Sequence record: OR896821.1
DNA length: 46,458 nt
Reading direction: 5' to 3' (one strand)
DNA from: Escherichia phage Phagiculus
A program made the position numbers and the translations under genes. Below, in pieces: positions 101 through 45,378 of the stretch. Under the pieces are notes generated by a model, which ran no database searches, was not told the DNA's origin, and was given only the letters and a program-made list of their open reading frames with translations. How positions within the stretch are numbered: the first letter of the stretch is position 1; each line of letters begins with the position of its first letter.

Positions 101-3073
101 TTAATTGTAACCCTTAAGAAAATTATAAAGCCTACCGCCTTGCTGCGCTGACTTCTCAAGCTCCTCAGCGACAATCAGTCTCACACCGCTCTCAATCGCC
201 TTAGCTTCTCCATCTGAGTTGCTTGAGCCGCCAACATTGACCGTAACTCCGCCAACGTTAACAGATGTTAAGCCGCCGCCAACAAGACCGCCATTCGCAT
301 AACCAGCGCTTAGATTGCCAACTGAGCCGCCATTAGCATATCCACGCATTAGCTTGTAAAGGTTTCCAACGCCAATCCTTGAAGTTGCCTCTTTTGTAAA
401 TACAAACTCTCCTTTGTGAACCGTGCCAGCTGGTTCGTACTTGCCACCGTTACCAGTGTAGCCGCCATCAGCGAAACCTAAAGCAGATATTAGCCCACTG
501 CCAGAGCTAGCTGCCGAGCCGCCACCAAAACTGCTGATAGTTGACTCAATAGCTTTAACTATAAGTAATTGAGTAGCAATCTTAGCGATCTGCTGAAGTA
601 TTGACGCTGCAAACTCCTTAAAGTTCGCCTTACCAGTAGTGAGGAGGCTTGTGATATTGTCTGTAATTCCAGTTAATACACTCTTTGTTAGATCGTAGCT
701 TATTTGGGCGAGGTTAGTTGCTTCAGCTGTGTAATCTTTAAATGCATCACTGGCGCCAGCAAGGAAGTCAGACCTTGCTAAATCCTCCTGCTTATAGAAA
801 GCCTCCTGAGCATCCCTAATTGCTTTATAGTCAGGGGAGTCAAGACTTCCACCCCTATTTAGCTGGTAAGATTCAGCTTTCGCCCTTTCTTGATTTCTGG
901 CATTCTCTATAGACCCGCTACCCCTATTGGATAGAGCAGCAGTCTGAGCAGCTAATTCTCTAGCCTTTTTAAGGTTATCGTCCTGAAGTTTATTCGCCCT
1001 TTCCTGCAAAACAATCTGATCGCCAAGTTCAGCTTTCTGTCTTGCCAATTCGAGAACCTTATCTTTCTCAATGAGAAGTCTGGCCTGCTCTCTTTTTATT
1101 GTACCAGCGTCCCGGCGCTCCTCGAGGATTGCAAACTTAGCTTCTTCGGCGAACAGCTGCTTGCGTTCATTACTGATTACGTCGCTAATCTGGCGGTGAT
1201 CTTTAAGAACCCTAAGCTGAGCCTCTAATGCAAGGACTCCAGACTCGTAGCTCAGCGTCAAATCTCTTTGGCTACCTACACCCTCCTTGCGCTTCTTGTT
1301 GGATTCCTCAATATCCTTAAGCTCCTGCTCTCTTGCCTTCCTACGCTTTTCAAATTCAGCGTCTGACTCACCCGTCCTTTGCTTCTCATCCTGAGAAGGC
1401 GTTACATAACCTAACTCACCTTTACGAATCCTAGCATCTCGCTCAGCGATTGACTTGATTAGCTCCTGATTGGCCTTCTCTATACCCTGGTTCTGCTCCT
1501 CAAACTGCTTAATTAGATCACTACCCACTCCTTTGGCCCCTGGTATCTTCTGGAAGGCCTTTAGAGAGGAAATCAAAAAGTCGTTGATGAGAATGTCACC
1601 CTGACCAATAAACAAACTGATTTGCTCAATTGTTTTAGCAACAACATCAGTGATAAGGTTGAGAGCGCCAAGCGTCCTGTTTCCAATGTCAGTCCAAATT
1701 CTTGATATGAAGTTCCTGAAGCCCTGCCATGCTCGCTCAAGTGGTGTAAGTGATTCGGCAACTTTAGTAAGGCGATTCTCCATAACATCAGCGAATAACT
1801 TAGTGGCAGCCGTTACAGCTTGCGTTTCACCTTGCGTAACCCTGATTTGCTCAATGTATTTAAGCTGACCTGCGGTTAAGAAGTTAAACTGCTTATCTAG
1901 CTCAGCAAGACCTTTGACCGGGTCATTTGCAATCTTGTCGAAGCTCTTAACGATATCTTCAGCTGAGTCACCAGTTACTGTGGCCCATCTAGCGGTTGCC
2001 TCTGTGATAATAGAAATCTGCGCTACAGTGCGATTGCCGCTAGCAACCAAACCTTTGGCAATCTCTTGACCAAGCCCCTGAGTTGCACCAGCAGCTTCTG
2101 ACGCGTTCCTGGCAAGATTCTGTATCGCAGCAGCAGATAAATTCGCATTCTGCCCAGTCAGTGTAAGAGTCTTTTCAAGCTGCGCCGTATTCTGGTATGC
2201 CTGGTAAGCCGACAATCCTAAAGCACCAAGAGCTACACCAAGCGCGCCAGCTGCAACTATAAAAGGATTCAATGCTGCAAGTGCAAATCTGAAGGTGTTA
2301 GCCACACCGCCAAAGCTATCTTTAATCTGTCCACCCTGCTGGATTGCAATCAACCAGATTGGAATACCGCCAGCGAGTGAGGTCCCGATATCTGTAATTT
2401 GCGCTGGCAACTGCCTGATTGCGTTTCTATACTCACCAGCGCTAAGTCCTGACTTTCTGAATGCACCGGACTGAGCCGACAATGCCGCAGAAGCTCTATT
2501 TGATGCATCAGCTATCTGATTAATAATAGGCGCCGCCTGGCTTGAAACACCCAACTCAGCAGCGCGAAGCTTAAGTAATTCCTCTCGAGTTAGTGTCGCC
2601 GCCTGCGCCTCCGCCTGCAAAGACTTAAGGAATCTTTCTGCCTGAGTCGCCGCTGTAGCTTTTGCCTTTGATGCCTCTATCGCCGCTCTGCCTTCCTCTG
2701 TCAAGGCGCGCTGATTCGTTCTCAGGCGATTTGTTTGCGTCTCCAGTGCCTCGCTTAAGCGGTAGAACTCAGCCTCTGGAACAACTCCAGCCGTAAAAGC
2801 CTTGTCCAGTGAGTTCGCGGCTTCCTGCAACTTACGCAGCTTTGATGCGGTCGGGTCGATTGCTGATTGTAAAGACTGAAAGGCGCTACGCTGCTCAGAA
2901 AGATAACGAGCTGTATCTCTTGCTTGATTTTTTGCTACCTGTTCGGCGTTAACGAAGCTACTAATTCCAGCTGCAGCTTGCTCGTTTGCGCGCTTAAATT
3001 CCTGCAACGACCTAGTGCCCTGGTCTACCTGCCTTACGTCTACGCCTAATGTAATTCCGGCAAATTCAGCCAT
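101..3073 (-). CDS. tail tape measure protein
   Basis: about 990 aa, coiled-coil rich, Gly-rich C-terminus, directly downstream of chaperone G/GT and upstream of M-L-K-I-J; GGAGG RBS before ATG at 3073 (ORF-track start at 3121 lies upstream of the terminator-like hairpin). Confidence 0.85.
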
Positions 3074-3083
3074 ATTACCTCCA

Positions 3084-3110
3084 TAAAAAAACCTCCACGA
3101 GGGAGGTTTA
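3084..3110 (-). terminator. intrinsic terminator-like hairpin between chaperone GT stop and tape measure start
   Basis: minus strand ACCTCC-CTCGT-GGAGGT followed by TTTTTTT, then GGAGG RBS. Confidence 0.45.
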
Positions 3111-3434
3111 TTTCTTAACATGCTGCATCATATCCAGAGCCTTATACTCAAGTATGCGCAGGTCGTTTAAAACCATCTCTTTATCTTTGACATTATACAC
3201 ATCAAAGAGAAATGGTAGTACTGAATAATCTAATCCTGTCGCGCCGTTCATCCCGACTCGCCATTGAGTAGCGGAAGCCTGATAGATATTCCATGCGCAC
3301 ATCATGTCATCATCGAAGAATAATTCCTCTGGCCCTTCATCTTCGTAATCTGAGCGGCGCATACCAATAGCTTCAAGTTCCGCATCTGTAGGCTCCTTCT
3401 GATACTGGAGGAATACGGCGCGTTTTAGTTTTTT
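3108..3434 (-). CDS. tail assembly chaperone T-frame extension (expressed as G-T fusion by -1 frameshift)
   Basis: -1 frame open from slippery site to stop at 3108; covers the ORF-track 84-aa ORF. Confidence 0.6.
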
Positions 3435-3788: not shown

Positions 3789-4490
3789 TTATTTACTGTT
3801 AGCAAGGTATAGCGCTTTAGCAAAGCCTCTTGGGGTAAGGCTTCTAATCATCTTAGTTCTTGCGCTCTTCCCGCCAAGTTTAGCCCAGCCTGGATTATCG
3901 GATGAGTTAGCATTAACCATCTTATCCTCAGGCATAACAAAGCCGTTTCCAGTCCAGAGGCAAGTTTTCTTATTGTAAGTATCCCTTCCAGGAATTATCT
4001 CAGGGAAGAACGGGTGCTTGTCATCCTCATCAAGATAGCCACCAAAATCACAAGGATGGAAAGTGTGATTTGGCCTTCTCCACATCGATGACAATACGCT
4101 AACTGGGTTCTCTATCATATATGGAGCGTTAAAGTGATTGGCTATATACTCAGCAATTCTGCAAGTTGACACCGCCTTGCGCTGAAAATCAGGGTCTTTT
4201 TCACCCTTAGATTTAAAGTGTCTTGAACCCGATACAGCAAGGTCAGTACACGGAGGGAATGCAATTATTAAATCTGGCTCACCAAAATAGCCTTTAACAG
4301 CCAGGTCCGCGAAAGATGAATCAATCCATGCATTAATGTATGTTATGTTCTCATGCTGAATCTTTGAGTTGTATTTGGCGTAGTCACCGTGGTCAGCGTC
4401 GTCATAGTTAAAACAAATCACCTTGTGACCGTTTTCTGCCCACGGCTGAGCTGCGATACCTGAACCATCAAATAAGCTGAATACTAACAT
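3789..4490 (-). CDS. DNA (cytosine-5) methyltransferase-like protein
   Basis: motif I-like LFDGSGI, motif IV-like FPPCTD with Pro-Cys, motif VI-like IENPVS; GAGGG RBS before ATG at 4490; preceded by terminator. Confidence 0.5.
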   Translation of the reverse strand: MLVFSLFDGSGIAAQPWAENGHKVICFNYDDADHGDYAKYNSKIQHENITYINAWIDSSFADLAVKGYFGEPDLIIAFPPCTDLAVSGSRHFKSKGEKDPDFQRKAVSTCRIAEYIANHFNAPYMIENPVSVLSSMWRRPNHTFHPCDFGGYLDEDDKHPFFPEIIPGRDTYNKKTCLWTGNGFVMPEDKMVNANSSDNPGWAKLGGKSARTKMIRSLTPRGFAKALYLANSK

Positions 4491-4525
4491 TATTAAACCC
4501 TCTTGTTTTCGATGGGTCCAATATA

Positions 4526-4552
4526 ACAAAAAAGACCCCTAAGGGTCTTTGC
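4526..4552 (-). terminator. intrinsic terminator after major tail protein gene
   Basis: minus strand AGACCC-TTAG-GGGTCT followed by TTTTTT. Confidence 0.6.
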
Positions 4553-4564
4553 AAAAAGTGCTAT

Positions 4565-5215
4565 TTATGCTGCCAGGAAGCTGTAGCGTCCTCGTACCGT
4601 AATTGCTACGGATACAGTTTCGATTTCGTTAACAGAAACGTTTGGCGTTTCGTTGAATGCGATAGTGCCAGTCCACAAGCGAACTTCACCAGCCTTAGGT
4701 ACGTATGCGCGAATCGCCAGAAGTGCACCAGTCTCATCGTAGTTGCGAAGGATTGGGTAAATCGGGTTGGTGAAGTCGTGCGCAAAGGTGTAAGTGGTGT
4801 TAACAGCTGACTTATAAGTCGGAATCTGCTGCTCACGGTCATCTGCCAGACACTGATAGGTAACAAACTGCTGTTCACCGCCGTCAGTAGAAACATCCTG
4901 AATACAAGGCATTTCATACCAGCTAAGAATCTTGTAGATTACCGCGGTGCCGCCAGCAGGGAACTGCATAACGTCGCTAGTGTCGATACCTTCGACGGTA
5001 ATAGTTGTTGCAGTGGTGCTAACTACTCGCAGTTGCTTCTCGGAAAGCTTAGACCAGCTTGAGGATTCAACAACGATAAAGTCACCACTTGCAAAATCAG
5101 AAGCGTCAGCAACCGTCATTACTGGTTGGGCTGCGTTGCTTACTGCGGTTACCTGAACTGATTCTCCAGCTGAACCCTGGATAAAGATTTGAGTACCGTT
5201 ACTCAAGTGTGCCAT
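4565..5215 (-). CDS. major tail (tube) protein
   Basis: position between neck/tail-completion genes and chaperones; AAGGAG RBS before ATG at 5215; flanked downstream by strong terminator. Confidence 0.55.
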   Translation of the reverse strand: MAHLSNGTQIFIQGSAGESVQVTAVSNAAQPVMTVADASDFASGDFIVVESSSWSKLSEKQLRVVSTTATTITVEGIDTSDVMQFPAGGTAVIYKILSWYEMPCIQDVSTDGGEQQFVTYQCLADDREQQIPTYKSAVNTTYTFAHDFTNPIYPILRNYDETGALLAIRAYVPKAGEVRLWTGTIAFNETPNVSVNEIETVSVAITVRGRYSFLAA

Positions 5216-5229
5216 GTAAATCTCCTTAA

Positions 5230-5628
5230 TTAATCCATACGTACGTAGAATCGGATTGGGAAGAACCAACCAGACTGTGATTTAACCGCTGGGTGTACCA
5301 CCCCCCCTTCATATATATATCCGGTGCTTAGCATTGTACCATCGGCGAAAGCTTCTGACAATGACCCCGCTAATTGGCGAGCCCTATCAATTCCAAAACC
5401 TGGAGGGAAGAACAAAGAGACCTGAACCATACCAATATAGTATCTGCAAGTTCTCTGAAGACCCCATGTAACGGTATCAGCTTCAGTGTAATCAAACTTT
5501 AGCCACATCGAGCCATTCTTTGGCGGTGTAAAGTTGCAGTTTTCGTAAGAAACTGGCAGCGAGCCAGTAATATCAACAGCAACCCTGCTTACCAATTCGC
5601 GCGCAGCGATAGACATTTCATAGTGCAT
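5230..5628 (-). CDS. tail terminator / tail completion-like protein
   Basis: GGAAGG RBS; position in neck-tail block; start overlaps stop of upstream gene. Confidence 0.35.
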   Translation of the reverse strand: MHYEMSIAARELVSRVAVDITGSLPVSYENCNFTPPKNGSMWLKFDYTEADTVTWGLQRTCRYYIGMVQVSLFFPPGFGIDRARQLAGSLSEAFADGTMLSTGYIYEGGVVHPAVKSQSGWFFPIRFYVRMD

Positions 5629-6046: not shown

Positions 6047-6446
6047 AAGTCGCAGCCCTCCGCAATACTGGTCGATATGCGATTACGGTTCCTGTTGGCT
6101 TAACTGGTCGAGGGTCAACTACCGTGTATGCTTCCTGGTCGACGTAGATGCGGTCACCTTCCGATATAACCGAATCAGCAGTAAAAATTCCACGACGGTC
6201 ACCGAAGATAATGATGTCACCATCAATGTCTCTTGCTTTGAACTCACGAATAACCCCCTTAACAGTATAAGAGCGGCCTGGAGACAAAACCTCACGTCCC
6301 GCCACAATCTGAACTGATGGAGCAGTTGTCGCCTCGAAAACACCATCACCATCTGACAGGAGGTTAATTCCTGTCTTTATCTGCTGTTGCAGAAGTCGAT
6401 GATCCATTAGCAGCACCCTCGCGATTTGCCCATAATAAGACCCCAA
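6039..6446 (-). CDS. head-tail joining (head closure-like) protein
   Basis: position between connector and gp10-like genes; overlapping gene boundaries. Confidence 0.35.
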   Translation of the reverse strand: MGSYYGQIARVLLMDHRLLQQQIKTGINLLSDGDGVFEATTAPSVQIVAGREVLSPGRSYTVKGVIREFKARDIDGDIIIFGDRRGIFTADSVISEGDRIYVDQEAYTVVDPRPVKPTGTVIAYRPVLRRAATYG

Positions 6447-6805
6447 CCGCCAAGTTTCTTGCGATAAAGCGCAAGATATAACTTGCCCCAGCTAGAACTA
6501 GATAAATCAGAAGAACTTTTAGTAGCAGTCGATGTGTCATATGTGATTGTGTACTCTCCAGAAAGTGAGTAGGACTTAACCCGATCAGATGATGTCTGGC
6601 TTGAGTCGTTCTGAGTCTTAAGTGCAATATCCTGACTAACCAGGTGTAACGTGTAGAATGCCAGAGCCTGAACCTTTTTGTCACCGAATCGCTCAAAGCA
6701 AACAAATAGCTTAGAAACTTCAACCCACGCGTTAAGAACTTCATCAGGCTGGCTTACTAAAGGTGGGTATAGCGTTCTCATGTATACAATTACTTCTTCG
6801 TTCAT
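6407..6805 (-). CDS. head-tail connector/adaptor-like protein
   Basis: position downstream of major capsid gene; GGAGG RBS. Confidence 0.35.
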   Translation of the reverse strand: MNEEVIVYMRTLYPPLVSQPDEVLNAWVEVSKLFVCFERFGDKKVQALAFYTLHLVSQDIALKTQNDSSQTSSDRVKSYSLSGEYTITYDTSTATKSSSDLSSSSWGKLYLALYRKKLGGWGLIMGKSRGCC

Positions 6806-6906
6806 CTTGTTCTACCTCCAGATAAATATCCAATTAACAATATTGCGCCAATTAAAGTTAATGGAGCAAAAAGAATCAATGTCATGACAAGAAAGAAAAT
6901 CAACAT
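6802..6906 (-). CDS. small hydrophobic peptide (34 aa, MLIFFLVMTLILFAPLTLIGAILLIGYLSGGRTR), not in ORF track
   Basis: GGAGG RBS 4 nt before ATG at 6906; stop TGA overlaps ATG of the next gene (ATGA coupling); single predicted TM helix. Confidence 0.4.
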   Translation of the reverse strand: MLIFFLVMTLILFAPLTLIGAILLIGYLSGGRTR

Positions 6907-6916
6907 GAAACCTCCA

Positions 6917-6945
6917 ATAAAAAAGGACGCCGAAGCGCCCATGTT
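6917..6945 (-). terminator. terminator-like hairpin with UUCG loop
   Basis: minus strand GGGCGC-TTCG-GCGTCC followed by TTTTTTATT. Confidence 0.45.
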
Positions 6946-6947
6946 TA

Positions 6948-7193
6948 TTATTTGTACTCGTTGCCAGTCTCGGCTTCAGAGATGGTCTTAGGCTCTTTTC
7001 GTTTGCGCTTGCTGGAAATCTCTTCTGCAATCTTTTTAGATTCTTTAGGGTCATCAGCAATTGTTATGCGACCCTCTGCGATAAGCTGCTTAATGCCAGC
7101 GCTAAGAACCTCAGTCTCAATAAAATCACCTGGAACGTAACCCTTACCATCAATCATGATAAAGCAAGCACCAGTATGTTCTAAACGAATCAT
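6948..7193 (-). CDS. hypothetical protein (81 aa, K/E-rich C-terminus)
   Basis: AAGGAG RBS before ATG at 7193. Confidence 0.4.
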   Translation of the reverse strand: MIRLEHTGACFIMIDGKGYVPGDFIETEVLSAGIKQLIAEGRITIADDPKESKKIAEEISSKRKRKEPKTISEAETGNEYK

Positions 7194-7255
7194 TTCAATC
7201 TCCTTTGTTATCTGTTAGTGGTGATTATAACTCATCGTTTTGGTTTCGTACAGAC

Positions 7256-7278
7256 GTAAAAAAGCCCTCCTAAGAGGG
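7256..7278 (-). terminator. intrinsic terminator after major capsid gene
   Basis: minus strand GCCCTC-TTAG-GAGGGC followed by TTTTTT; shares 22-nt element with 15635..15656. Confidence 0.6.
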
Positions 7279-7285
7279 CGATTTA

Positions 7286-8233
7286 TTAAGGGTAGGTAAT
7301 ACCCTTCAGTACAGATACGGTCAGCGGACGGTAGATAACCAGACCAGTAGACTTAGAAGTAACCGGATATTTAAAATGAAGGTCCTTAGGCTGACCCGGC
7401 AGCACATTGGTCGCTTCCGGAATCTCAATGCTGAGGTTCAGCGGATCTTTTTCAAACGCCAGTGCTGCTTTACCGCCCGCGCCATCGTAGTTATCCAGGA
7501 ACTGAAGGTAACGGATGGTAAGGCCAGGGTTGTTACGAGTAAACAGTTCACCATAACTAATGGTAGTACCAGCAACCAGGCCCTGCATTACTCGACGAGC
7601 GGATGCCGGAAGAATGATGTCAGTTACATGGTGAATGCCCTGGGTTGCAATTTCAACAGAATCAATCATTGAAGTAATATCATCAACCGCGTTCTTGGCA
7701 TCAGTCCAGCCACTTGCATTAGCAGTAATCTGGTTGACGTTAGGCGCGTTGAATACGCTGGTAATGCCATGAGGCGTAGAGCCTTGCCAAACCAGTTTAT
7801 CAAGCAGGTTGTCGTGAGCTTCAAATGCCAGCGCCTGTTTGCGAGATTGCAGAGGCTGACCAGTTGCAGCGCCAGCTTTGATTTCATCAACGGACACCAG
7901 GAAGGCGTTACCGAATCGGAAAACTTTGCCCTGCTTCTCAGTCATGAAAGCATCAACCAGCGGCAGGTCATCAGAGTAATCAGCGATAATCTGAGCGATA
8001 CCTACGCCATCGAATTCCGGGTATTCAAAGTATTTTGCGTGGCTTGGGATTTCGTTACTTACAGGGAAGATATTAACAACGGAGTTATCCGGGTATTCTT
8101 TCTCGTAGTTACGCTTGAGGGTTTCGGTAAGCTGCTTGACGGTCCAGATACCAGCCGCATCAGCCTTTTCGACGCCCATTTGCTCGAGGTGAGCCGTGAT
8201 TTTAGCCTGTTCGGCGTCTAACTTAATAGCCAT
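7286..8233 (-). CDS. major capsid protein
   Basis: 315 aa, position after scaffold/decoration genes, own sigma70-like promoter and strong terminator. Confidence 0.65.
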   Translation of the reverse strand: MAIKLDAEQAKITAHLEQMGVEKADAAGIWTVKQLTETLKRNYEKEYPDNSVVNIFPVSNEIPSHAKYFEYPEFDGVGIAQIIADYSDDLPLVDAFMTEKQGKVFRFGNAFLVSVDEIKAGAATGQPLQSRKQALAFEAHDNLLDKLVWQGSTPHGITSVFNAPNVNQITANASGWTDAKNAVDDITSMIDSVEIATQGIHHVTDIILPASARRVMQGLVAGTTISYGELFTRNNPGLTIRYLQFLDNYDGAGGKAALAFEKDPLNLSIEIPEATNVLPGQPKDLHFKYPVTSKSTGLVIYRPLTVSVLKGITYP

Positions 8234-8268
8234 TTTATCATCCTTTTAGTTAACAAGTTTACGAGTTC

Positions 8269-8296
8269 ATTATACACGAGTTTTAAGCCCGCGCAA
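8269..8296 (-). promoter_or_regulatory. sigma70-like promoter upstream of major capsid gene
   Basis: minus strand TTGCGC - 16 nt - TATAAT, 29 nt leader with AAGGA RBS. Confidence 0.4.
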
Positions 8297-8311
8297 TGGC
8301 GGGCATTAATC

Positions 8312-9853
8312 TTATGGCAGCTTGAATGTCTCAATCCTAATTGCGATGTTAAAACTAGTATCAGCTGGGCGCTGAAGGTGAAAAACATCAATCATTATAA
8401 TGTTTTTATCTCCCCAATCTCTAGCTGAGAATTGAATTCTTTTATATCCCCCACCAGTATAACCCGCAGGATCACCTACAACATACCTGCTAGTTCCTGC
8501 AATTGTGTGGTTTGACTGATATCTCTTAACTACGTCAGCGGATGGAAAGTTTACAACCTCAACATCAAAATACCTTCCTGCAATTGAGTTGCCTACAAAA
8601 GAGTACTCAATGTTATTCCCAACCCTTCTTACTGAAAAAGAGATGCCAGGGTTGTTTGGTATAGCTATAGCTGAGTAGCTTGTCGATACGGTAAGTTGAG
8701 TTGTATAAACTGGATTGTTTGTATTATTTTGACCTGCTGGACCCTGTGGGCCGGTTGCGCCAGTTTCGCCTTTTTCTCCTTTGTCGCCCTTTTCGCCCCT
8801 CTCTCCCTGTGGTCCTTGTGGCCCCACCGCTCCAGCAACGCCTCTAATGCCTTGCGGCCCTTGAATACCCTGAGGTCCAGTATCACCTTTTGGCCCTTGA
8901 GGACCGGCTGGTCCAGTAATACCCTGCAATCCTTGATCACCTTTTGGCCCCTGTTCACCTGGTAAACCTTGAATACCTTGCTGGCCCTGAACCCCTCTTG
9001 GACCCTGCTGTCCTGTTTCTCCTTTTTCACCTTGAGGGCCGATATCACCAGGGTCGCCTTTTTCACCCTTATCACCCTTCGTCCCCTGAGCGGCAAGAAC
9101 AACCCACAGAGGTGATACTCCAGGTTCCTCATCTTCTGCAATGTTGCTAACTGCGAAGTAGGTTGAGCCACCGTAAACTACGGTATCATCTTTTGCATAA
9201 CCAGTATCAGGAACCCATTGCCCACGGAATGTTAAACCAGCAGGCCCGACTTCGCCAGGATCACCTTTCTCACCAGTATCACCTTTTAATCCTTGCGGAC
9301 CTTGTGGGCCGATATCACCCCTATCTCCCTTGTCGCCTTTCAAGCCTGCTGGGCCTTGAATTCCCTGTGGACCTTGAATACCTTGAGGGCCAATTGGTCC
9401 TTGTGGACCTACCGCACCACGCTCACCTTTTTCCCCATCAGCGCCATCGTCACCCTTTGGACCCTGCGGACCCTCTGGTCCAACTTCCCCTCGTGGACCT
9501 TGAGGACCTTGCGGACCAGCCATTCCATCCCTGCCAGATGTTCCCTGAAACCCTTTAGTTAACGCAACTGCAAACTGATTTGACTCGGATGAAGGTTCGC
9601 CAAAAACCTCCCAACCTTCGTGAGTGATTTCGTTTACTCTATCAATTAGCTTTTGGCGACTGGTTGCACTCAGAACCATGAAGTCGGTAATATCTGCGTT
9701 AGTTCCCTTAGCTACAACCATGCCAATAGTGTTAGAGCCAGTGCCTGTTAATACTCTATCAAATGGCTGCCAACCTTCTGCAATTGCCTCTAGCACCTTG
9801 CGGCTAAGTGATGCCGTGTTACCAGCAAGGATTTGCCTAAATTCTAAAGCCAT
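8312..9853 (-). CDS. collagen-like repeat protein with embedded CBM5/12 (ChtBD3)-like segment
   Basis: two long Gly-X-Y runs (GPQGPQGPRGEVGPEGPQGPKGDDG... and GDKGEKGDPGDIGPQGEKG...) separated by WVPDTGYAKDDTVVYGGSTYFAV...PLW; non-collagen N- and C-terminal domains. Confidence 0.8.
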   Translation of the reverse strand: MALEFRQILAGNTASLSRKVLEAIAEGWQPFDRVLTGTGSNTIGMVVAKGTNADITDFMVLSATSRQKLIDRVNEITHEGWEVFGEPSSESNQFAVALTKGFQGTSGRDGMAGPQGPQGPRGEVGPEGPQGPKGDDGADGEKGERGAVGPQGPIGPQGIQGPQGIQGPAGLKGDKGDRGDIGPQGPQGLKGDTGEKGDPGEVGPAGLTFRGQWVPDTGYAKDDTVVYGGSTYFAVSNIAEDEEPGVSPLWVVLAAQGTKGDKGEKGDPGDIGPQGEKGETGQQGPRGVQGQQGIQGLPGEQGPKGDQGLQGITGPAGPQGPKGDTGPQGIQGPQGIRGVAGAVGPQGPQGERGEKGDKGEKGETGATGPQGPAGQNNTNNPVYTTQLTVSTSYSAIAIPNNPGISFSVRRVGNNIEYSFVGNSIAGRYFDVEVVNFPSADVVKRYQSNHTIAGTSRYVVGDPAGYTGGGYKRIQFSARDWGDKNIIMIDVFHLQRPADTSFNIAIRIETFKLP

Positions 9854-9908
9854 TTCATTTACTCCGTATTGGTTAATAGTACTAATGATTGTATCAGATT
9901 ATAGGCAA

Positions 9909-9929
9909 TAAAAAACCTCCCGAAGGAGG
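9909..9929 (-). terminator. intrinsic terminator between 177-aa gene and collagen-like gene
   Basis: minus strand CCTCC-TTCG-GGAGG followed by TTTTTT. Confidence 0.6.
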
Positions 9930-9936
9930 CTTTAAT

Positions 9937-10470
9937 TTAAAGAACCTTTACGCACAGTGTCTTGCCTGAAATGGTTTCACTCCTCAGTTTGCCAACTACA
10001 ACTGACGCCCTCATCTTTGTCCAGTCATCTGGAATCTTGTAGTAATCATAATATTTCTGGAGAGTGTAATCGTAACCCGTCCCAGAGAAAACAAGGTCAT
10101 CTGATGTGAAGTCATCCGATACAGATAAGTTTGAGATTATAACCTCGCCATCTTCAAGATGTTGATCAAGGATGTTCATGTATGACTCGGCGTACTGGTT
10201 TTCAAGCTGGGATCTGTCAATATTAACCGATAGGAGCCTAAATCTATCATAATTTAAAACTGATTTGCGGTTTGATAGAGTTACACTAGCCACCGACACC
10301 GACTCGGTAATAGCCTTAGTTCTTGCGTTAAATGATAATCCGTGATTAATTGAAAAGTTAGAATTTGATGAAGCGTCAGCTGTCGATGTATATCCTGATG
10401 CTGATAATTCATGAAAGAAAGAATTCATCTCACCAACACTAGAGAATGATACCGATATTTTCTTATACAA
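9937..10470 (-). CDS. hypothetical protein (177 aa), TTG start
   Basis: AAGGAG RBS 7 nt before TTG at 10470; bracketed by terminators. Confidence 0.5.
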   Translation of the reverse strand: MYKKISVSFSSVGEMNSFFHELSASGYTSTADASSNSNFSINHGLSFNARTKAITESVSVASVTLSNRKSVLNYDRFRLLSVNIDRSQLENQYAESYMNILDQHLEDGEVIISNLSVSDDFTSDDLVFSGTGYDYTLQKYYDYYKIPDDWTKMRASVVVGKLRSETISGKTLCVKVL

Positions 10471-10482
10471 TTTTATCTCCTT

Positions 10483-10506
10483 AAAACAAAAAGGCCCCGA
10501 AGGGCC
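10483..10506 (-). terminator. intrinsic terminator after decoration-like gene
   Basis: minus strand GGCCC-TTCG-GGGCC followed by TTTTTGTTTT. Confidence 0.55.
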
Positions 10507-10512
10507 AGTTAA

Positions 10513-11040
10513 TTAAGCAGTAGCTAATGCTGAATCTGCGGATTGAATCAGCTGAACTTCAACGATTGCACCATCGTAGCTTTCGCCTTGTTTAATTGGG
10601 TCGCTACCGTTGTTAGCATAAGCCGAAGCATAGCCACCAGCAAATGTAAAACCAGTTTCCCAAGTAGTGTCTGCCGCTTTAGCAACAACAACACCACTTG
10701 CGTTAACGAAAACCTTGCTACCAAAATCTGGTGCACTTGCTAGAGTAGTACGAACCCAGATACGACCATGAGTCATTACGTTAACCGCTTCATTTACGCG
10801 AGCAGTTCCGTCTGGAGTCTCGTAGTGGGATTTAACAACAACACCATAAGGTTTAACTGGTGTGCCAGTAACGACTGGAAGACCAACAACCTTGTGACCA
10901 TCTACAGGCTGAGCTGAGGTAACGCCAACAAAAGTGCCAACTGGAATTGCAGCAGTACCACCAACCACACAAGCACCATCAATATTATACAGGGAAGTAT
11001 CAGCTACCATGCCTGCCAGAGCTACGGAACGAATTGCCAT
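10513..11040 (-). CDS. head decoration/cement-like protein
   Basis: 175 aa Gly/Val/Ala-rich protein after scaffold gene; AAGGAG RBS. Confidence 0.4.
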   Translation of the reverse strand: MAIRSVALAGMVADTSLYNIDGACVVGGTAAIPVGTFVGVTSAQPVDGHKVVGLPVVTGTPVKPYGVVVKSHYETPDGTARVNEAVNVMTHGRIWVRTTLASAPDFGSKVFVNASGVVVAKAADTTWETGFTFAGGYASAYANNGSDPIKQGESYDGAIVEVQLIQSADSALATA

Positions 11041-11050
11041 TTAGGACTCC

Positions 11051-12154
11051 TTATTTTTTCAATTTAGCGAGGCGAGCTCGCGGGTCTAATTTCTTAGGCG
11101 CGTCGGCTGCATCGGATTTGTCAACGCCATCTACTTTAGCGCGTACTTCAGCCATTTTATCAGACTCTTTGGCGATATCAAAGGCTGCATCGATGTATGC
11201 ATCAGATTTCTCAGACACATTCAGGCCGGAAACCTCTTTAACGTAAGCAACTTTAATTTGCTTAGCGTCGAGTCCGTCACACTTAATGCCAACTTCGGTA
11301 GCTTTAGCAACCAGGTCAGCCATTACGGCGGAATCAGCTTTAAACTTCTCAATGGCTGCTTCGATTTCTTTATCCATGCCATCAACTTTAGCTTTCAGCA
11401 TATCCCGCTCTGCGGTGATGCCTTCAATCTTTTCTTTTGTATCTTTGGCATCTGCTTTGATAGCTTCGATGTGTGCCGCAACTTCTGGGGCGATTTCAAA
11501 CTCCTGTGCGCCATCCAGTTTAATTTTAACCATTTCTGAATCCTCTTTAGTTAATTGAACGTCATCATTATATGGGTTTTCTTGCTCACCGTCCAGATTA
11601 AGTTTGGCGACACCTGCGCGACCTTTATGGACTAGCGCGATATGATTCACTAAGATGTTAGTCTGAAGCGCGTCAAAGCGGACCCAATCAGAAGGGATTT
11701 CTTCCTGACTGGCATAATCACCATCCAGTTTATACTCTCCAGTCTCATTACTACCCCAGCCGCCAGTATTAACATCAACCGTGCTGTAACCTACTGACAA
11801 TTCGCCAGCATCTCCAGATTTAGCCTTTTCGATAGCCTCCTTGTCGTAAATTGTCAAAGGAACTACCACGTTAGAATCCTGACGCTGACCAACACCATTT
11901 ACAGAACCAACCACAGTCTCCTTTGCGTTGTCAGGGCTCACAAACACGTGACCTAAGGTTAGCGGCTTGCCCATATACGATTCCAGTGAATCGCTTTTAA
12001 AGACCTCTGAAGCAGGGCGAAATTCACGACGAACTCCACCATCTGCTGTTGCGTACTCCTGCACTCCGACACGCGCAACTACGGGCGTGTCGACCAGGAA
12101 TCCGTTTTCATCGAAGCGGGCCTTAACCCGCGCTGTATCGAAACGAATTGCCAT
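11051..12154 (-). CDS. capsid scaffolding protein (DUF2213-like N-terminus plus K/E/A/D-rich coiled-coil C-terminus)
   Basis: composition and position between portal and capsid genes. Confidence 0.5.
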   Translation of the reverse strand: MAIRFDTARVKARFDENGFLVDTPVVARVGVQEYATADGGVRREFRPASEVFKSDSLESYMGKPLTLGHVFVSPDNAKETVVGSVNGVGQRQDSNVVVPLTIYDKEAIEKAKSGDAGELSVGYSTVDVNTGGWGSNETGEYKLDGDYASQEEIPSDWVRFDALQTNILVNHIALVHKGRAGVAKLNLDGEQENPYNDDVQLTKEDSEMVKIKLDGAQEFEIAPEVAAHIEAIKADAKDTKEKIEGITAERDMLKAKVDGMDKEIEAAIEKFKADSAVMADLVAKATEVGIKCDGLDAKQIKVAYVKEVSGLNVSEKSDAYIDAAFDIAKESDKMAEVRAKVDGVDKSDAADAPKKLDPRARLAKLKK

Positions 12155-12192: not shown

Positions 12193-13464
12193 TTAGATGA
12201 TTACCTCCTCTTCCGTAACCTGCGGCACAGCTTCTTGCTGCTCTACGTCACCATCAGTCAACTTAACTTCTGGCGCGATAACACGAATTGTATCACGAGC
12301 CTCGTTAACATTCATAACGCCAGCTGCAATTAATGCAGAAAGAGATTCAACGTTAGACCTCATCACTTCTGCCTTCTGTTCGTTGCTAGGCTGGTTTAGT
12401 GGGTTAAAGTCGATTGACCATTCTTGCTCTGTTACGATGAACGGTATTAAGAACTCAAGAATAGGCAGCAAATCAGCCTTTCGTTTACGGTCTACCAGTT
12501 TGTGGAATGTCTCAAGTGCCGTGTTCTGGCTAGATGAAACGCCGCCAACGTTCTTGGCCTTCAGTACAATTTCATGAATACCACTCAGGGCAACGATTCG
12601 GTCGAACTTAGCTGAAAGTAAATCCGTAACGCCAGAAGTTGAAGCTGTTAGTACGCTGTAATCCTCTGATTCCGCATCAATGCCAATCGTATTCGCCACG
12701 CCGCCATTGCTATCAACCTGAGCTAGTCGCAACCTTGCAGCTGCCACACCTTCAGAATCATCACAGATTTCAGCCAAACCCTTGACCTTCCATACTCCCT
12801 GCTGGCTACGCTTCATTAACTGAGTTGCATAGCTTTCGCACTGCTGGTAGTCCTGAATTGCATCAAGCAGGTCATTACTTAGTACTGTAGCACCCCAGCC
12901 ATCATTTTGTCGACGGAGTGTGTTAGGTACGCGCTCGCCATCGATGATATGAATGCGAGTATAGTGCACATCATAGAAAGTATCAGAGTCACCAGTAGTA
13001 ATTCGGTAGGTAACTGGCTTGCCAAAGCGTGAATTGCGCGGATTTTCCTCGCGTGTTTGAATCCTGACTTGCTGGCGATCATAAACCCTTACAGATTCCA
13101 GTTCTGCACCTTCACGAACCGGCTTAGTCAGGTCTCGATTGTCTCGGACGATTGCTACGATAGCCGAGCCGCCGAATAACCTGGCCCATGACCATGCATC
13201 AGTTATTGAATCTGATAGGTCAAGCTCATCCCAGCGCGACCAGAATGCGTCTTCATTCTCAATGCCGTCAATGTGAAACCCAGCACCAAGCCCTTCCTCT
13301 GGAATTACGTCGACAATGCGGCGAACTAGTGCGTTGTTTACGTATGCAGACTGTAATATAGCAGGAATACCAATACCAACAGAGCCAAACCGTCCAAAAA
13401 TCTCACTACCTGTACCTAAAGTGCCATCACCAAAGGTGTTTGCATAAGAATCAGCCTTTACCAT
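12193..13464 (-). CDS. portal protein
   Basis: about 420 aa, immediately downstream of terminase large subunit; GGAG RBS before ATG at 13464. Confidence 0.55.
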   Translation of the reverse strand: MVKADSYANTFGDGTLGTGSEIFGRFGSVGIGIPAILQSAYVNNALVRRIVDVIPEEGLGAGFHIDGIENEDAFWSRWDELDLSDSITDAWSWARLFGGSAIVAIVRDNRDLTKPVREGAELESVRVYDRQQVRIQTREENPRNSRFGKPVTYRITTGDSDTFYDVHYTRIHIIDGERVPNTLRRQNDGWGATVLSNDLLDAIQDYQQCESYATQLMKRSQQGVWKVKGLAEICDDSEGVAAARLRLAQVDSNGGVANTIGIDAESEDYSVLTASTSGVTDLLSAKFDRIVALSGIHEIVLKAKNVGGVSSSQNTALETFHKLVDRKRKADLLPILEFLIPFIVTEQEWSIDFNPLNQPSNEQKAEVMRSNVESLSALIAAGVMNVNEARDTIRVIAPEVKLTDGDVEQQEAVPQVTEEEVII

Positions 13465-13514
13465 GTGTTTCTCCAATAAAAAAGCCCCCATATAGAAGGC
13501 TAGTTTAGCACGGT

Positions 13515-15083
13515 TTATCTAATTCCAGCTAGTCGCTTCAGAGCTGCTTTAGGGTCATCTGCGAGGTTAAGTTCACAGTTGATAGCCATTGTTGTGGTAT
13601 CCACGATGTCATCATGAAGGTGACTGTCGTCAGCAGTGAATGCAGCAAACTCAGCAAGGAATGCAGGCAACCAGGGCGCAGACTCTGGCAAAATAACGTT
13701 ACCAGCCTTAATCTGAGGTAATGCACTCATTACTCGCGTAAGTTTGTCGCTGTCCGGAACAAACGGCTCTATAGGTGTTCTCATCGTTCTGCTTGCTGAC
13801 TGAATCAGTCCGATGCCAGACGCCTTCTTCTCGATGATAACTTTGCGAAGGATTCCGTCAATCTTATTCATTGAGCGGGCCTTAGCTTCAAACTCGACGA
13901 GAGTAGCCTCAAGTTCAGGCGCTTCCCATTTGCCGCGAACCATGTCAAGTAAGTAAGCCTTACGGTCCTTAACTCCCCACAGCTGGAATACGGAGAAGTC
14001 GCTATAGCTCTTAGTAGTCATCGCAGTGTCAGCCGTGATAAATCGGTAATCGTACTTAGCTGGAGGTCTGTTGTTCTCATCAATTCGAGCAAACCAGTCT
14101 ACGTTAACCAGGTTTCCACCTAGAGCCACTGGCTCCTGCTGGTACTGACTCATGAATGTGTAGTGGTCAGAGTCCATCATAGACACCAGGTCGTGAACAG
14201 ATTCCTTTTTAGGGAAGTAGCTATAATACTTCACGCCATCGCGTTCAACATATTCGCTTGATAGCACGTCATCAATGAATTGCTGCTTAATCCAATCAGG
14301 CAATGTATCGACGTAATCTTCAGTAACTAGCGCAGGAATCTTAACCACATCGAAGTCTATACCCATACCACCAGAAGTCATGAACCAAGTTGAGTCGTTC
14401 ACGTGCAAGCGCTGCTGGATGGAAAGAATTGGCGTGGCCTTACCTTTTACCGAACTTGCACGACGAGAGCGAACGGTGTTTTTAAGAAGCGTATGAACAG
14501 CCTCTCTGCGAACCTTGCTAAACATGTCGTCTGCTTTATCAATATCATCCAGCATTAAACAGCCGCTATAATTATCAGTGATATATCCCCCGCGAGCGCC
14601 AATTATCTGACCGCCAATCGCCTTAGAGATGGACTCAAACCTGACCTTTCCAGACTCATCAAGAACCTGAATCTCATCATCCTTGCATGTTCCAAACTTA
14701 GACGGGAATAACTCCTGGAACTCAGTTGACTTAATCAGGTCACGCACCCGCTTTGAGTTACGCTTCACCAGACTATCCGAGAACGATAAGTTAAGGTTCC
14801 TAACCTTTTGTAGCTTGAGCATTGAGTAGACTGGAAAGTGGATTGAAGTAATCTCAGTCTTACCAGCACCAGGCGCTACGTTAATGATTGTATCTTTGCG
14901 CTCGCCACTGATTACCTCGTCGATGATTCTGCAAAGGTACTTGTGATGCCAGTTGGGGATATAGCGTTCGCCCTGTGTTAGCTGAAACCACACCCGAAGG
15001 AATGCCTCGAAGTTGTGAGTGGATAAAGCTTTAACTGCCAGCTTTTCGGCTGGCGTCATATCTTCCCAAACTAGTGTATTCAT
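13515..15083 (-). CDS. terminase large subunit
   Basis: Walker A VAPGAGKTE; 522 aa; ATGA overlap with upstream small gene. Confidence 0.85.
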   Translation of the reverse strand: MNTLVWEDMTPAEKLAVKALSTHNFEAFLRVWFQLTQGERYIPNWHHKYLCRIIDEVISGERKDTIINVAPGAGKTEITSIHFPVYSMLKLQKVRNLNLSFSDSLVKRNSKRVRDLIKSTEFQELFPSKFGTCKDDEIQVLDESGKVRFESISKAIGGQIIGARGGYITDNYSGCLMLDDIDKADDMFSKVRREAVHTLLKNTVRSRRASSVKGKATPILSIQQRLHVNDSTWFMTSGGMGIDFDVVKIPALVTEDYVDTLPDWIKQQFIDDVLSSEYVERDGVKYYSYFPKKESVHDLVSMMDSDHYTFMSQYQQEPVALGGNLVNVDWFARIDENNRPPAKYDYRFITADTAMTTKSYSDFSVFQLWGVKDRKAYLLDMVRGKWEAPELEATLVEFEAKARSMNKIDGILRKVIIEKKASGIGLIQSASRTMRTPIEPFVPDSDKLTRVMSALPQIKAGNVILPESAPWLPAFLAEFAAFTADDSHLHDDIVDTTTMAINCELNLADDPKAALKRLAGIR

Positions 15084-39604: not shown

Positions 39605-39628
39605 GAAAAAGCCCCGAAAGGGGCTTAG
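39605..39628. terminator. bidirectional terminator between convergent genes
   Basis: AAGCCCC-GAAA-GGGGCTT with flanking A-run. Confidence 0.6.
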
Positions 39629-40296
39629 TCGTATGCGGCGGTATATATTGCTGTAACTCTAGCACCGTTTGTCGTTCCACCAGAAGCCTGCGTGCCATTT
39701 ATCAATGGAACTGCATTTATCCTAGTCTGTGATCCATTGTATCTACAGGATATGCCAGCAGTAGCCGACCTTATTATCTGCTGACCATTCTGAACCTGAT
39801 AAACGTTAAGAGTGCCAAGAGCGGCTGGGCAAACAGCTACGCTTCCGCTGTAAGTTCTATCTATGTCTATACCTCGCCCATCAACGGTAAACAAATCGCT
39901 AAGAACCTTACTCTCATTAGTGAGGACTAATTTGCCTGCTGAATCCCATATAGCCATACCCCATTGCGGAAGTGATTGCGGAAATATAGCAAAAACATAA
40001 GCCGTCAAGCTAAAAGCCTGCCCTGCATAGTTTGTTCCACTAATGTAAATGGTTCCGGCATTAGCGCCTTCAGTAATGTTGTACGCTATAACTGCAACGC
40101 CTTGAGAAGGGCTGCTTGTCTTAATAAATACACTTACCGGATAAGTGGAATTGAAAGGCAGGTACTGAGTAACGCTATGTGCCGCCGAATTCCCAGATGA
40201 CTGGAATGTGTACTTCCCGTAGAGGCAGAATGGAGTTGAAGCTGGAGTTATGAATGGGTTTCCATTAACATCAATTATTGCACCATAATCAGCCAT
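39625..40296 (-). CDS. tail-associated protein (223 aa)
   Basis: downstream of J; N-terminus MADYGAIIDVNGN paralogous to neighbour. Confidence 0.45.
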   Translation of the reverse strand: MADYGAIIDVNGNPFITPASTPFCLYGKYTFQSSGNSAAHSVTQYLPFNSTYPVSVFIKTSSPSQGVAVIAYNITEGANAGTIYISGTNYAGQAFSLTAYVFAIFPQSLPQWGMAIWDSAGKLVLTNESKVLSDLFTVDGRGIDIDRTYSGSVAVCPAALGTLNVYQVQNGQQIIRSATAGISCRYNGSQTRINAVPLINGTQASGGTTNGARVTAIYTAAYD

Positions 40297-43600: not shown

Positions 43601-44005
43601 ATTACTTTCCTGCTTAACAAGACGAGGCCAGAATAACTTCACTCGAATCGCTGAAAGCTGATTGTTAGTTACTGAAATGATGTACGGGGTATCATTATTG
43701 ATTTCTCTGGATACCTGGAACTCAGATGATGCCCCATCAAGACCCGCAATGTAATTTTGCGATTGCGTGCCAGGGCGAAACTGAGCGCTTACACCTTCAT
43801 AGTTGAAAGAGTTATCCGCGTTCTGAACGGGAACATCTGCAAGGTACAAATCCTTAAGTGAGAAGCTAGAGTCAACCTCGCCATCGGCAACAGCAAGCAG
43901 AACCTTAATCTTGTTCAGTGAAATCAGGTTATCTTCTTGCTCAACTGGTGTGTGTGTCTTTTGACTACCACCCTTGCTTCCGTAAATCTTTGGCAAATCG
44001 GCCAT
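40649..44005 (-). CDS. tail tip / host specificity protein J-like (central tail fibre)
   Basis: about 1120 aa; N-terminal SKGGSQKTHTPVEQEDN resembles lambda J; fibronectin-like middle region; start among three close ATGs (44044/44035/44005). Confidence 0.85.
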   Translation of the reverse strand: MADLPKIYGSKGGSQKTHTPVEQEDNLISLNKIKVLLAVADGEVDSSFSLKDLYLADVPVQNADNSFNYEGVSAQFRPGTQSQNYIAGLDGASSEFQVSREINNDTPYIISVTNNQLSAIRVKLFWPRLVKQESNGDLNGTTCEYAIDLSVNGGAYTQYTRGVANGKTTTGYDRSIRVNLPAEFSSALVRIRKITPDSTSSTLVNGMQITTYQEVIDAKFRYPLTALVYVEFSSDLFPNGIPTIAIKKKWKLIRVPTNYNPETRQYSGTWDGTFKMAWSNNPAWVLYDLVVSQRYGLDQRELGVEIDKWGLYEAAQFCDQMVPDGKGGLEPRYLCDVVIQQKVEAYQLIRDICSIFRGLTFYDGEKIGIVVDKPRQPSYVFTNDNVVDGLFSRTFSSDKSLYTTANVQFDDEQNNYQQDIEPVFELEATRRFGFNPVDLSAIGCTRRSEANRRGRWLLKTNLRSETISFTTGLEGMIPMVGDVIAVNDQAWSSNYTLNLSGRIVEASGLQVFVPFAIDAEPGDRILINKPDGSPEYRTIASVSQDKLTIELNTAFSFNPQPDTVFAIDKQNLALQQYVVTGIQKANTDGDDSFQYNITAVQYDPNKYDEIDYGVNIDDRPTSIVDPDRILPPENLRVSSYSKVVQGLSVETMVIGYDKVQYAKTYNVQWRKNNGNWINVPETANTEVDIEGIYAGIYDVRVRAVTDQKSVSAWSEIVTVSLTGKIGEPEPLAVITASDDEVFGIRVKWGFGENSADTAYVELQQVPDNGDGTYSPENASLLSLVPYPQYEYWHTTLPAGNVRWYRARAIDRIGNVSQWTEFVRGMASDDVTAIIGEIKVDIEDSDGYKYLLQNAINSNTDIQNQAEAIIENALANDIDVRIMTRENGARKAEYRQAVNLIADETQARVEALTQLKAQIDDEIVGQITTIETALATETEARATADTALSARLGENEAALNEKLDTYATAEGVGVQYGVKLGLKYQGMEYGAGMSMELVGSGGNVRSQFIFDANRFAISNGISQGSGQWSLPFVVENNQVFIQSAVIQDGSITNAKIGNAIQSNNFVANNTGWRLDKAGTFENNGFTAGEGRMKQTNQTISVADANGRLRVQIGRLTGTF

Positions 44006-44053
44006 ATCATATAACCTCGTTATTTGTTTAACCATTTGTGACATTCTACACTA

Positions 44054-45369: not shown

Positions 45370-45378
45370 TTGCTCACC

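Follow-up and report, generated by a model that had tools for sequence, protein, structure and literature searches.

What does a gene for a long collagen-like fiber, filed in databases as a tail fiber, do between the genes for the capsid cement protein and the major capsid protein of a tailed phage? The question is raised by Escherichia phage Phagiculus (sequence record OR896821.1), whose whole genome, 46,458 nucleotides (nt) long, is the window analyzed here. Phagiculus is a T1-like coliphage of the virulent family Drexlerviridae, and the records nearest to it are those of the phages MM01 and e4/1c (Rogunavirinae, Drexlerviridae). Its head-module genes all lie on the minus strand and are transcribed in the order terminase, portal, protease/scaffold, cement, 177-amino-acid (aa) protein, 513-aa protein and major capsid protein. 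An earlier reading of the bare sequence (the original prediction) had noticed two extra genes between a decoration-like gene and the major capsid gene, and the open reading frames and the profile matches of their flanks (PF22758 and PF09950) bear this out. Judging from sequence comparison and from analogy with better-known capsids, we think it probable that the 513-aa product is a trimeric head fiber whose six DUF1737 domains plug the center of a hexon, and not the tail fiber of its annotation. The interval between the cement and capsid genes, referred to as the slot, is laid out as follows.

10513-11040, minus strand: capsid cement/decoration gene, 175 aa, upstream flank of the slot (PF22758 Phage_cement, expect value (E) 5.6e-26; phrog_1989)
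9937-10470, minus strand: gene of the 177-aa protein, TTG start (open reading frame; Shine-Dalgarno AAGGAG 7 nt upstream)
8312-9853, minus strand: gene of the 513-aa collagen-like fiber (open reading frame; phrog_5073 over the full length)
7286-8233, minus strand: major capsid protein gene, 315 aa, downstream flank of the slot (PF09950, E 7.8e-37; phrog_264)

Domain layout of the 513-aa protein

The 513-aa protein matches the phrog_5073 profile over aa 1-509 (E 3.1e-132), a family whose label 'tail fiber' is annotation only. From the N-terminus it is built of two DUF1737 repeats, 36 Gly-X-Y triplets, a knob, 40 further triplets and a beta-sandwich tip.

9545-9853, minus strand: tandem DUF1737 repeats, aa 1-103, proposed capsid anchor (PF08410; EGWQPF and EGWEVF motifs)
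9230-9553, minus strand: collagen block 1, aa 101-208, 36 Gly-X-Y triplets, about 31 nm as a triple helix
9086-9229, minus strand: CBM5/12-like knob, aa 209-256 (48 aa), aligned with CBM_5_12 profile positions 1-43 of 44
8726-9085, minus strand: collagen block 2, aa 257-376, 40 Gly-X-Y triplets, about 34 nm as a triple helix
8315-8725, minus strand: distal all-beta tip, aa 377-513 (AlphaFold2 (AF2) model; BFVD matches; identity to the tips of other phages)

The two N-terminal DUF1737 repeats, aa 1-103, were overlooked in the original prediction. The domain (PF08410) scores 29.1 bits in the full protein and 35.6 bits when aa 1-106 are scanned, both above the cut-off of 24, and Pfam scans of the protein found neither PF08400 nor any other tail-fiber N-terminal domain. 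A word-index search with the 106-aa N-terminal fragment returned no match, the query probably being too short, and tblastn and a custom hidden Markov model (HMM) were used instead; sequence matches of the N-terminal domain in PDB were at chance level. Applied to the slots of related phages, the HMM of the tandem domain retrieved collagen proteins and short fibers (E 1e-17 to 1e-42) and nothing else, so that one tandem DUF1737 anchor appears to carry at least two kinds of fiber.

Both of the long Gly-X-Y blocks described in the original prediction are indeed there, uninterrupted, with 36 and 40 triplets (Pfam Collagen, PF01391, E 1.3e-36, 124.5 bits against a cut-off of 27.2). Since no DNA tandem repeats were found in the collagen region, it is not a recent amplification at the DNA level. 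Recombinant EPclA forms trimers with a triple-helix melting transition at 42 °C (PMC3368898); by analogy with its circular dichroism and multi-angle laser light scattering data, the 513-aa protein would form a homotrimeric collagen triple helix. In the knob, Y219 and W250 are invariant among 15 homologs and D223, V225 and P244 nearly so, and many related collagen proteins in the sequence database carry a precomputed PF02839 domain. We call the knob 'CBM5/12-like', a putative carbohydrate binder and not a demonstrated member of the family. The tip was modeled by AF2 as a ten-strand all-beta domain (predicted local distance difference test (pLDDT) 84.6, predicted template modeling score (pTM) 0.80). 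A Foldseek search of the model against PDB gave nothing at E <= 1e-3 and only generic beta-sandwiches (Asf1, MATH) at template modeling (TM) scores of about 0.35; in BFVD it matched predicted phage fiber tips at TM 0.63-0.84, including JS10 'tail fiber-like', BECP10 collagen-like and AHP42.

Evidence for and against a fiber on the head

The proposed mode of attachment comes from phage phi24B, where cryo-electron microscopy placed a hexamer of the DUF1737 domain of gp84 (NanS-p esterase) in the central pore of the hexon and a separate cement protein beside it, at the junctions of three capsomers (bioRxiv 10.64898/2026.04.10.717836). The N-terminus of gp84 (...LAKRITQKLKEGWQPYGSAL..., compared by eye over residues 1-57) aligns with repeat 1 (...LSRKVLEAIAEGWQPFDRVL...) and repeat 2 (...RQKLIDRVNEITHEGWEVFGEP...) of the window protein, in keeping with the domain's fold of one helix and three antiparallel strands, and the EGWQP core is common to both anchors. 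That the collagen-like protein is part of the virion, as had been suggested, is borne out in Rogue1. The syntenic homolog gp21, encoded between cement gp20 and capsid gp22 and 43% identical over aa 1-348, was identified in cesium chloride-purified virions by matrix-assisted laser desorption/ionization mass spectrometry at 59.5% coverage, from a 52.7-kDa band that is one of about six Coomassie bands on the virion gel (PMC3496638). The protein is a virion component in this homologous phage, and a copy number in the tens to hundreds would explain a visible band better than the presence of only a few tail fibers.

Position and company point the same way. The fiber gene lies within the head module and the tail genes elsewhere, and its product has no tail-attachment domain that we could detect. 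The slot is shared with short fibers (224-229 aa) bearing the same tandem anchor (HMM E about 1e-18). In SPP1, gp12 is a collagen-like trimer at hexon centers (PMC7602432). A collagen-repeat homolog is also found directly upstream of two hoc-like genes in the T4-like phage VR7 (L004 4833-8191), and T4-like phages may likewise mount collagen fibers on the head. The DUF1737 anchor and the slot cargo of relatives, both arguments from analogy, favor a capsid location of the collagen-like protein.

On these grounds we propose that the 513-aa protein would be an optional virion protein that trimerizes via its two collagen segments into a thin fiber about 70 nm long. Two DUF1737 repeats in each of three chains would give six domains per trimer, which would form a ring like that on the central pore of the phi24B hexon and thereby fit a 3-fold fiber to a 6-fold site. 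The fiber would project from the capsid; three CBM5/12-like knobs would lie halfway along it and a trimeric beta-sandwich tip would end it, and knobs and tip would bind glycans on the E. coli surface or in mucus or biofilm. This would widen the capture radius and make for reversible primary adsorption, in line with proposals for T4 Hoc, T5 pb10, the phi29 head fibers and SPP1 gp12. The anchor travels with the head module, and the tip is exchanged by recombination with the tail fibers of unrelated coliphages. Within this scheme the domain content, the insertion, the virion presence of a homolog and the exchange of modules are shown by the data, and we infer glycan binding by the fiber and, by analogy, the 3 x 2 = 6 arrangement of DUF1737 domains and the attachment at the hexon center.

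Several observations weigh against a head fiber. Electron microscopy of Rogue1 reported no head fibers (PMC3496638), and proteomics of AHP24, based on seven excised bands and not decisive, did not list the collagen homolog (PMC4070988). The Tyr42 'tooth' that anchors phi24B gp84 is, by eye, kept in neither repeat of the window protein, and each repeat taken singly stays under the Pfam cut-off of 24 (18.2 bits, E 2e-3, and 21.0 bits, E 3e-4). The capsid proteins, PF13252 in phi24B and PF09950 in the window, have no detectable sequence similarity, and because these families differ, DUF1737 docking on the Phagiculus capsid is an extrapolation. As to the ligand, the segment between the collagen blocks does align with the CBM5/12 profile, as the original prediction had it, over positions 1-43 of 44, but at 20.6 bits (E 4.7e-4) it falls short of the PF02839 gathering score of 26.2, and a full-length scan of the protein at E <= 0.01 did not report CBM_5_12.

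The remaining adverse points are those on which a tail-associated fiber would be argued, be it lateral or at the neck or collar, with the N-terminus docked on the tail tip, the gpJ region or the head-tail connector and the tip as the primary glycan receptor-binding module. Phrog_5073 and RefSeq name the family 'tail fiber protein'; no lateral-tail-fiber-like open reading frame of at least 200 aa follows gpJ in the window, so the 513-aa protein could take that role; the Col-knob-Col-tip layout resembles that of EPclB tail fibers from Shiga toxin (Stx) prophages (PMC3368898); and the tip shares 96% identity with a protein from a Vequintavirinae tail-fiber neighborhood and 88% with a podophage protein whose gene lies near a tailspike. 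Nonetheless, we regard a tail location as rather unlikely. The 'tail fiber' labels were transferred between annotations without experiments, and the same family is also mislabeled 'DNA polymerase I'. The anchor domain has so far been shown only as a capsid binder, and an N-terminus of the PF08400 type is missing. Moreover, the gene sits in the head module, in a slot otherwise holding head decorations, and the Rogue1 homolog is abundant enough to be visible as a Coomassie band.

The slot in related phages

The original prediction had proposed that comparison with related phages would reveal an insertion, and it does, with exact blastn boundaries. In ACG-M12 (L003) the cement gene leads straight to the capsid gene across a 123-nt spacer, and two segments of the window stand out against it.

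8299-9892, minus strand: insertion segment 2, the fiber cassette, relative to ACG-M12 (blastn breakpoints)
9926-10530, minus strand: insertion/replacement segment 1, relative to ACG-M12 (blastn; 177-aa gene and post-cement terminator, replacing 37 nt)

The fiber cassette is a clean insertion, because window positions 7008-8298 and 9893-9925 are contiguous in ACG-M12 (at 2642/2641); it is flanked directly by the terminator region on one side and by the -35 of the capsid-gene promoter on the other. As judged by these alignments, both extra genes are accessory insertions relative to ACG-M12. Identity to MM01 (L001) is 93.6% over 7000-9939, absent over 9940-10618 and 72% further upstream (cement, protease); with similarity lost over that stretch, the 177-aa gene sits on a sharp mosaic junction with MM01. 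The head modules of these phages recombine within the decoration slot.

We then surveyed 80 IMG/VR loci carrying the cement protein and measured the gap between cement and capsid genes, both flanks being found in 76. The slot was empty (119-210 nt) in about 30 of these 76 loci. T1 and many relatives have a second cement paralog in it, often with one or two C-terminal Big_2 immunoglobulin-like (Ig) domains. Several loci hold a 347-463-aa GDSL/SGNH esterase matching phrog_9703 'head decoration', and in phiEB49, DTL and others the occupant is an Ala-rich short fiber of 224-229 aa (phrog_1954 'virion structural protein'). Collagen proteins occupy the slot in e4/1c, AHS24, phiKP26, Sf12, Sd1 and L052. 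Across the 80 loci, the sequences thus far identifiable as cargo are all of the head-decoration type, and the slot reads as an interchangeable site for capsid-surface cargo in Drexlerviridae.

Some occupants deserve mention in their own right. The second cement paralog with one or two Big_2 domains is seen in T1-like relatives at L032 7503-8270 and L043 7504-8520, and would amount to a Hoc-like display on a cement scaffold. The slot esterases (L019 7798-8841, L022 8119-9411, L023 7562-8854 and L052 7546-8937) are reminiscent of the capsid-borne NanS-p esterase of phi24B; DUF1737 was not detected in them. The fiber gene itself is split in some relatives. At L020 (AHS24-like) 6392-7277, a 150-aa piece comprising the anchor and the start of the collagen overlaps a separate 151-aa open reading frame for the tip, and at L008 919-1608 a stop lies between the anchor and the remainder; true truncation, frameshift or sequencing error could each account for such genes. 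The 150-aa piece of L020 is the origin of the propagated 'DNA polymerase' label (phrog_22681).

Separate histories of anchor and tip

By tblastn against phages, the anchor was found only in Drexlerviridae, in 34 records, with 97-98% identity to MM01 and e4/1c and about 39-42% to the remaining records. The tip (aa 376-513) is distributed quite differently: it is 100% identical in MM01, 96% in the side tail fiber of the Vequintavirinae W70 and A73, 93% in UDF157lw, where the anchor is only 39% identical, 88% in the Autographiviridae podophage PAS7 and 55% in a T4-like Kosakonia phage. In e4/1c the window tip was not detected, although the anchor is 97% identical. By these identities, anchor and tip have separate histories. 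The tip has been exchanged horizontally among phage families, much as would be expected of an interchangeable module for ligand binding. The homologs of the tip in Vequintavirinae and PAS7 are encoded in tail-fiber or tailspike neighborhoods, a circumstance that tells against a head fiber.

The 177-aa protein

The 177-aa protein had been described as lacking any recognizable motif, and so it proved, with no Pfam or PHROG match and PDB sequence matches at chance level only. An exhaustive HMMER scan of 1.84 billion representatives returned three clusters, of which one is the protein itself, one a fragment of 80 aa and one a 177-aa protein with 37% identity to it. Syntenic full-length homologs at 37% identity are present in L008 and L013, where the order is cement, terminator, 177-aa homolog, terminator and a tandem-DUF1737 short fiber. 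The National Center for Biotechnology Information (NCBI) calls the gene at 9937-10470 as 163 aa from an internal ATG (Met15). Because the alignments of two 177-aa homologs begin at residue 4, the TTG start giving 177 aa is probably correct over the NCBI form. From its sequence relatives the gene is real, conserved in position, very rare and fast-diverging.

More distant relationships were sought by profile and structure. The hhalign comparison of the 177-aa protein with a 161-aa gene of DTL gave 81% probability (E 1e-5). Its AF2 model is poor (pLDDT 63; 34-47 for the other four models), and the only significant match of this model in BFVD was its positional counterpart in MM01, a 186-aa protein (E 8e-6, TM about 0.6), with which BLASTP found no similarity. 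The MM01 protein is in turn related by hhalign to a 129-aa gene of e4/1c (97.7% probability). A tandem DUF1737-like fold was also considered for the 177-aa protein, being suggested by a twice-repeated beta-alpha-beta3 secondary structure and by Foldseek matches to the N-termini of Jk06 and phiJLA23 (E 0.09-0.44); it was rejected on an hhalign probability of 2.5% and the low confidence of the model (pLDDT 63).

The gene adjoins the fiber gene on the same strand, its homologs in L008, L013 and DTL also precede a tandem-DUF1737 fiber gene, and MM01 has a protein of the same predicted fold in the same position. These arrangements would suit a protein devoted to chaperoning or assembling the collagen-like fiber, akin to tail-fiber assembly proteins, a role we judge improbable. 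The 177-aa gene is dispensable for the fiber, since Rogue1, phiKP26 and phiEB49 do without it, as does the fiber gene of AHS24, and Rogue1 still incorporates its fiber. Furthermore, the window and MM01 fibers are 98% identical, with tips 100% identical, yet their partners share no sequence similarity; the 177-aa protein does not co-vary with the fiber, and its family accompanies two different fiber types. The comparisons suggest instead an independent, optional, recombination-prone and rapidly replaced accessory of the decoration slot. Its product might be another capsid-associated or assembly-related protein, a weak guess that we hold as doubtful.

Terminators and promoters

Terminator-like sites are over-represented between 6000 and 13000, with 12 found against 5.5 +/- 2.2 in shuffles. 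The signals around the two extra genes are the following.

10493-10506, minus strand: intrinsic terminator after the cement gene (GGCCC-UUCG-GGGCC then UUUUUGUUUU; -10.8 kcal/mol)
9910-9933, minus strand: intrinsic terminator after the 177-aa gene (AAAGCCUCC-UUCG-GGAGGUUUUUU; -12.3 kcal/mol, z -2.5)
9898-9903, minus strand: TATAAT hexamer upstream of the fiber gene, candidate -10 only (read from the sequence; absent from the promoter scan output)
8287-8304, minus strand: GC hairpin after the 513-aa gene (GCCCGC-CAUUGC-GCGGGC; -14.2 kcal/mol)
8269-8296, minus strand: capsid-gene promoter TTGCGC-N16-TATAAT (TTGCGC 8296-8291, 16-nt spacer, TATAAT 8274-8269)

A GC-rich hairpin with an immediate U-run, as expected of an intrinsic terminator, is present at 10506-10493 and 9933-9910; in the latter the stem spans about 9930-9916 and the U-run 9915-9910, and the site is homologous to the post-cement terminator of relatives that have no insert. 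The original prediction had each extra gene followed by such a terminator, which holds for the 177-aa gene but not for the 513-aa gene. The hairpin at 8304-8287 is followed by CUUAAAACU and lacks a U-tract; the -35 region of the capsid-gene promoter forms its 3' arm, and only its 5' arm (GCCCGC) came with the insert. The TTGCGC-16-TATAAT promoter credited to the capsid gene is present just as described, but it is no part of the cassette. At least 11 relatives, some with an insert and some without, keep the motif ATTGCGYGG...CTCGTGTATAAT ahead of the capsid gene; because insert-less relatives conserve it, the promoter is ancestral, predating the insertion and lying outside the cassette. An extended -10 was considered for it and rejected, the bases preceding TATAAT being GTG and not TGN. 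No convincing -35 was found for the TATAAT at 9898-9903, and no promoter between the cement terminator and the 177-aa gene, where there is no room before the ribosome-binding site. An Rfam scan of 7000-11200 returned nothing at gathering score. A sub-threshold match to PhotoRC-I at 10493-10535 on the minus strand (25.2 bits, E 0.0018; gathering score 45) overlies the cement-gene terminator and most likely merely reflects its hairpin.

The description of the locus as 'moron-like' holds in that both genes are absent from many relatives and inserted between conserved genes, but on the whole it suits the locus poorly, the phage belonging to a virulent family and the 513-aa gene being structural and not a host-directed gene of lysogeny. 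The stronger version, a classical moron of two non-structural, host-directed genes (for example a collagen-like adhesin or an immune-evasion factor) with autonomous promoters, is very improbable: the flanking hairpins or terminators and the lower guanine-plus-cytosine (GC) content of the 177-aa region (0.41 vs about 0.46) would suit it, and against it stand the virulence of the Drexlerviridae, the virion protein homologous to the 513-aa product, the lack of promoter space before the 177-aa ribosome-binding site and a strong promoter that belongs to the capsid gene and is older than the insertion.

Genome setting

The rest of the head module lies upstream of the slot.

13515-15083, minus strand: large terminase gene (open reading frame and profile matches)
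12193-13491, minus strand: portal gene (open reading frame and profile matches)
11051-12154, minus strand: DUF2213 protease/scaffold gene (open reading frame and profile matches)

Lambda-like tail genes outside the slot comprise the major tail (4565-5269) and tape-measure (101-3121) genes, M/L/K/I-like minor tail genes (44085-46134) and the central fiber J (40649-44044). A 246-aa open reading frame at 3789-4529 on the minus strand, between the major tail and tape-measure genes, matches a DNA methyltransferase family (phrog_757, E 2e-88) at the usual site of tail assembly chaperones. Directly downstream of J, on the minus strand at 39625-40296, is a 223-aa 'membrane associated protein' (phrog_425, category moron/host takeover).

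Significance and comparison with known systems

Taken more broadly, the slot may represent a plug-and-play capsid display of the Drexlerviridae, in which a duplicated DUF1737 would turn a 3-fold fiber into a pseudo-6-fold hexon plug, long collagen, coiled-coil or other fibers could be mounted on the head, and tips would be traded directly with the tail fibers of myo-, podo- and T4-like coliphages; this wider proposal is tentative, and we hold it with less assurance than the head fiber itself. Earlier work has already described, separately, the protein family, collagen-like capsid decorations (SPP1 gp12) and DUF1737 capsid docking. The combination of a tandem anchor, a long collagen fiber and a tail-fiber-type tip in a swappable head slot was not found described in the literature.

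If the fiber is capsid-borne, DUF1737 capsid docking, a very recent finding, would hold for siphophages and for a second capsid-protein family as well, and two anchors per chain would be a simple structural answer to the mismatch of 3-fold and 6-fold symmetry. The capsid as well as the tail would then carry exchangeable host-recognition modules setting the first, reversible adsorption step. In a coliphage family that is popular for therapy, host recognition would be located partly on the head, in a hot-swappable slot; the collagen fiber gene is present in many O157 biocontrol phages. Widespread 'tail fiber' and 'DNA polymerase I' annotations would denote head fibers, and a propagated mis-annotation would be corrected. 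For phage display or host-range engineering, the fiber would also be a natural scaffold, one whose use need not alter the tail.

Among known systems, phi24B gp84 resembles the window fiber in having an N-terminal DUF1737 with the EGWQP core and an outward, carbohydrate-directed cargo, and both phages have a separate cement protein. Unlike gp84, which has one DUF1737 per chain and forms a hexamer, the window fiber has two per chain and is presumably a trimer. The gp84 cargo is an SGNH esterase, apparently cleaved off, whereas that of the window is a collagen fiber. The phages also differ in their capsids, phi24B being a T=9 podovirus with a PF13252 capsid protein and the window phage a siphovirus with PF09950, and in gene position, the gp84 gene lying next to stx outside the head module and the window fiber gene inside it.

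Another counterpart is Rogue1 gp21 (phrog_5073), of the same family, genomic position and anchor-Col-knob-Col-tip layout and a virion protein by experiment; it has another tip domain and an anchor only about 39% identical, and its published annotation recognized neither DUF1737 nor a role on the head. SPP1 gp12 is presumably very small, at about 6.6 kDa, in contrast to the 513 aa, 76 triplets and three globular modules of the window fiber. Like the proposed fiber, it is a collagen-like trimer sited at quasi-6-fold hexon centers; it is dispensable and has been suggested as an aid to adhesion (PMC7602432).

EPclB-type fibers of Stx prophages share with the window fiber two collagen segments, a small globular interruption and a C-terminal trimerizing cap (PMC3368898). 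They differ in joining the tail through PfN (PF08400) and a coiled coil and in having a Phage_fiber_2 knob and a PfC C-terminus, none of which was detected in the 513-aa protein by Pfam scans. Finally, T4 Hoc, T5 pb10 and phi29 gp8.5 are, as proposed for the window fiber, dispensable adhesins of the capsid surface, Hoc and pb10 at hexon centers. Hoc and pb10 are Ig-like monomers, however, and gp8.5 is an alpha-helical trimer at quasi-3-fold sites, and the three are set apart from the window fiber by having neither collagen nor DUF1737.

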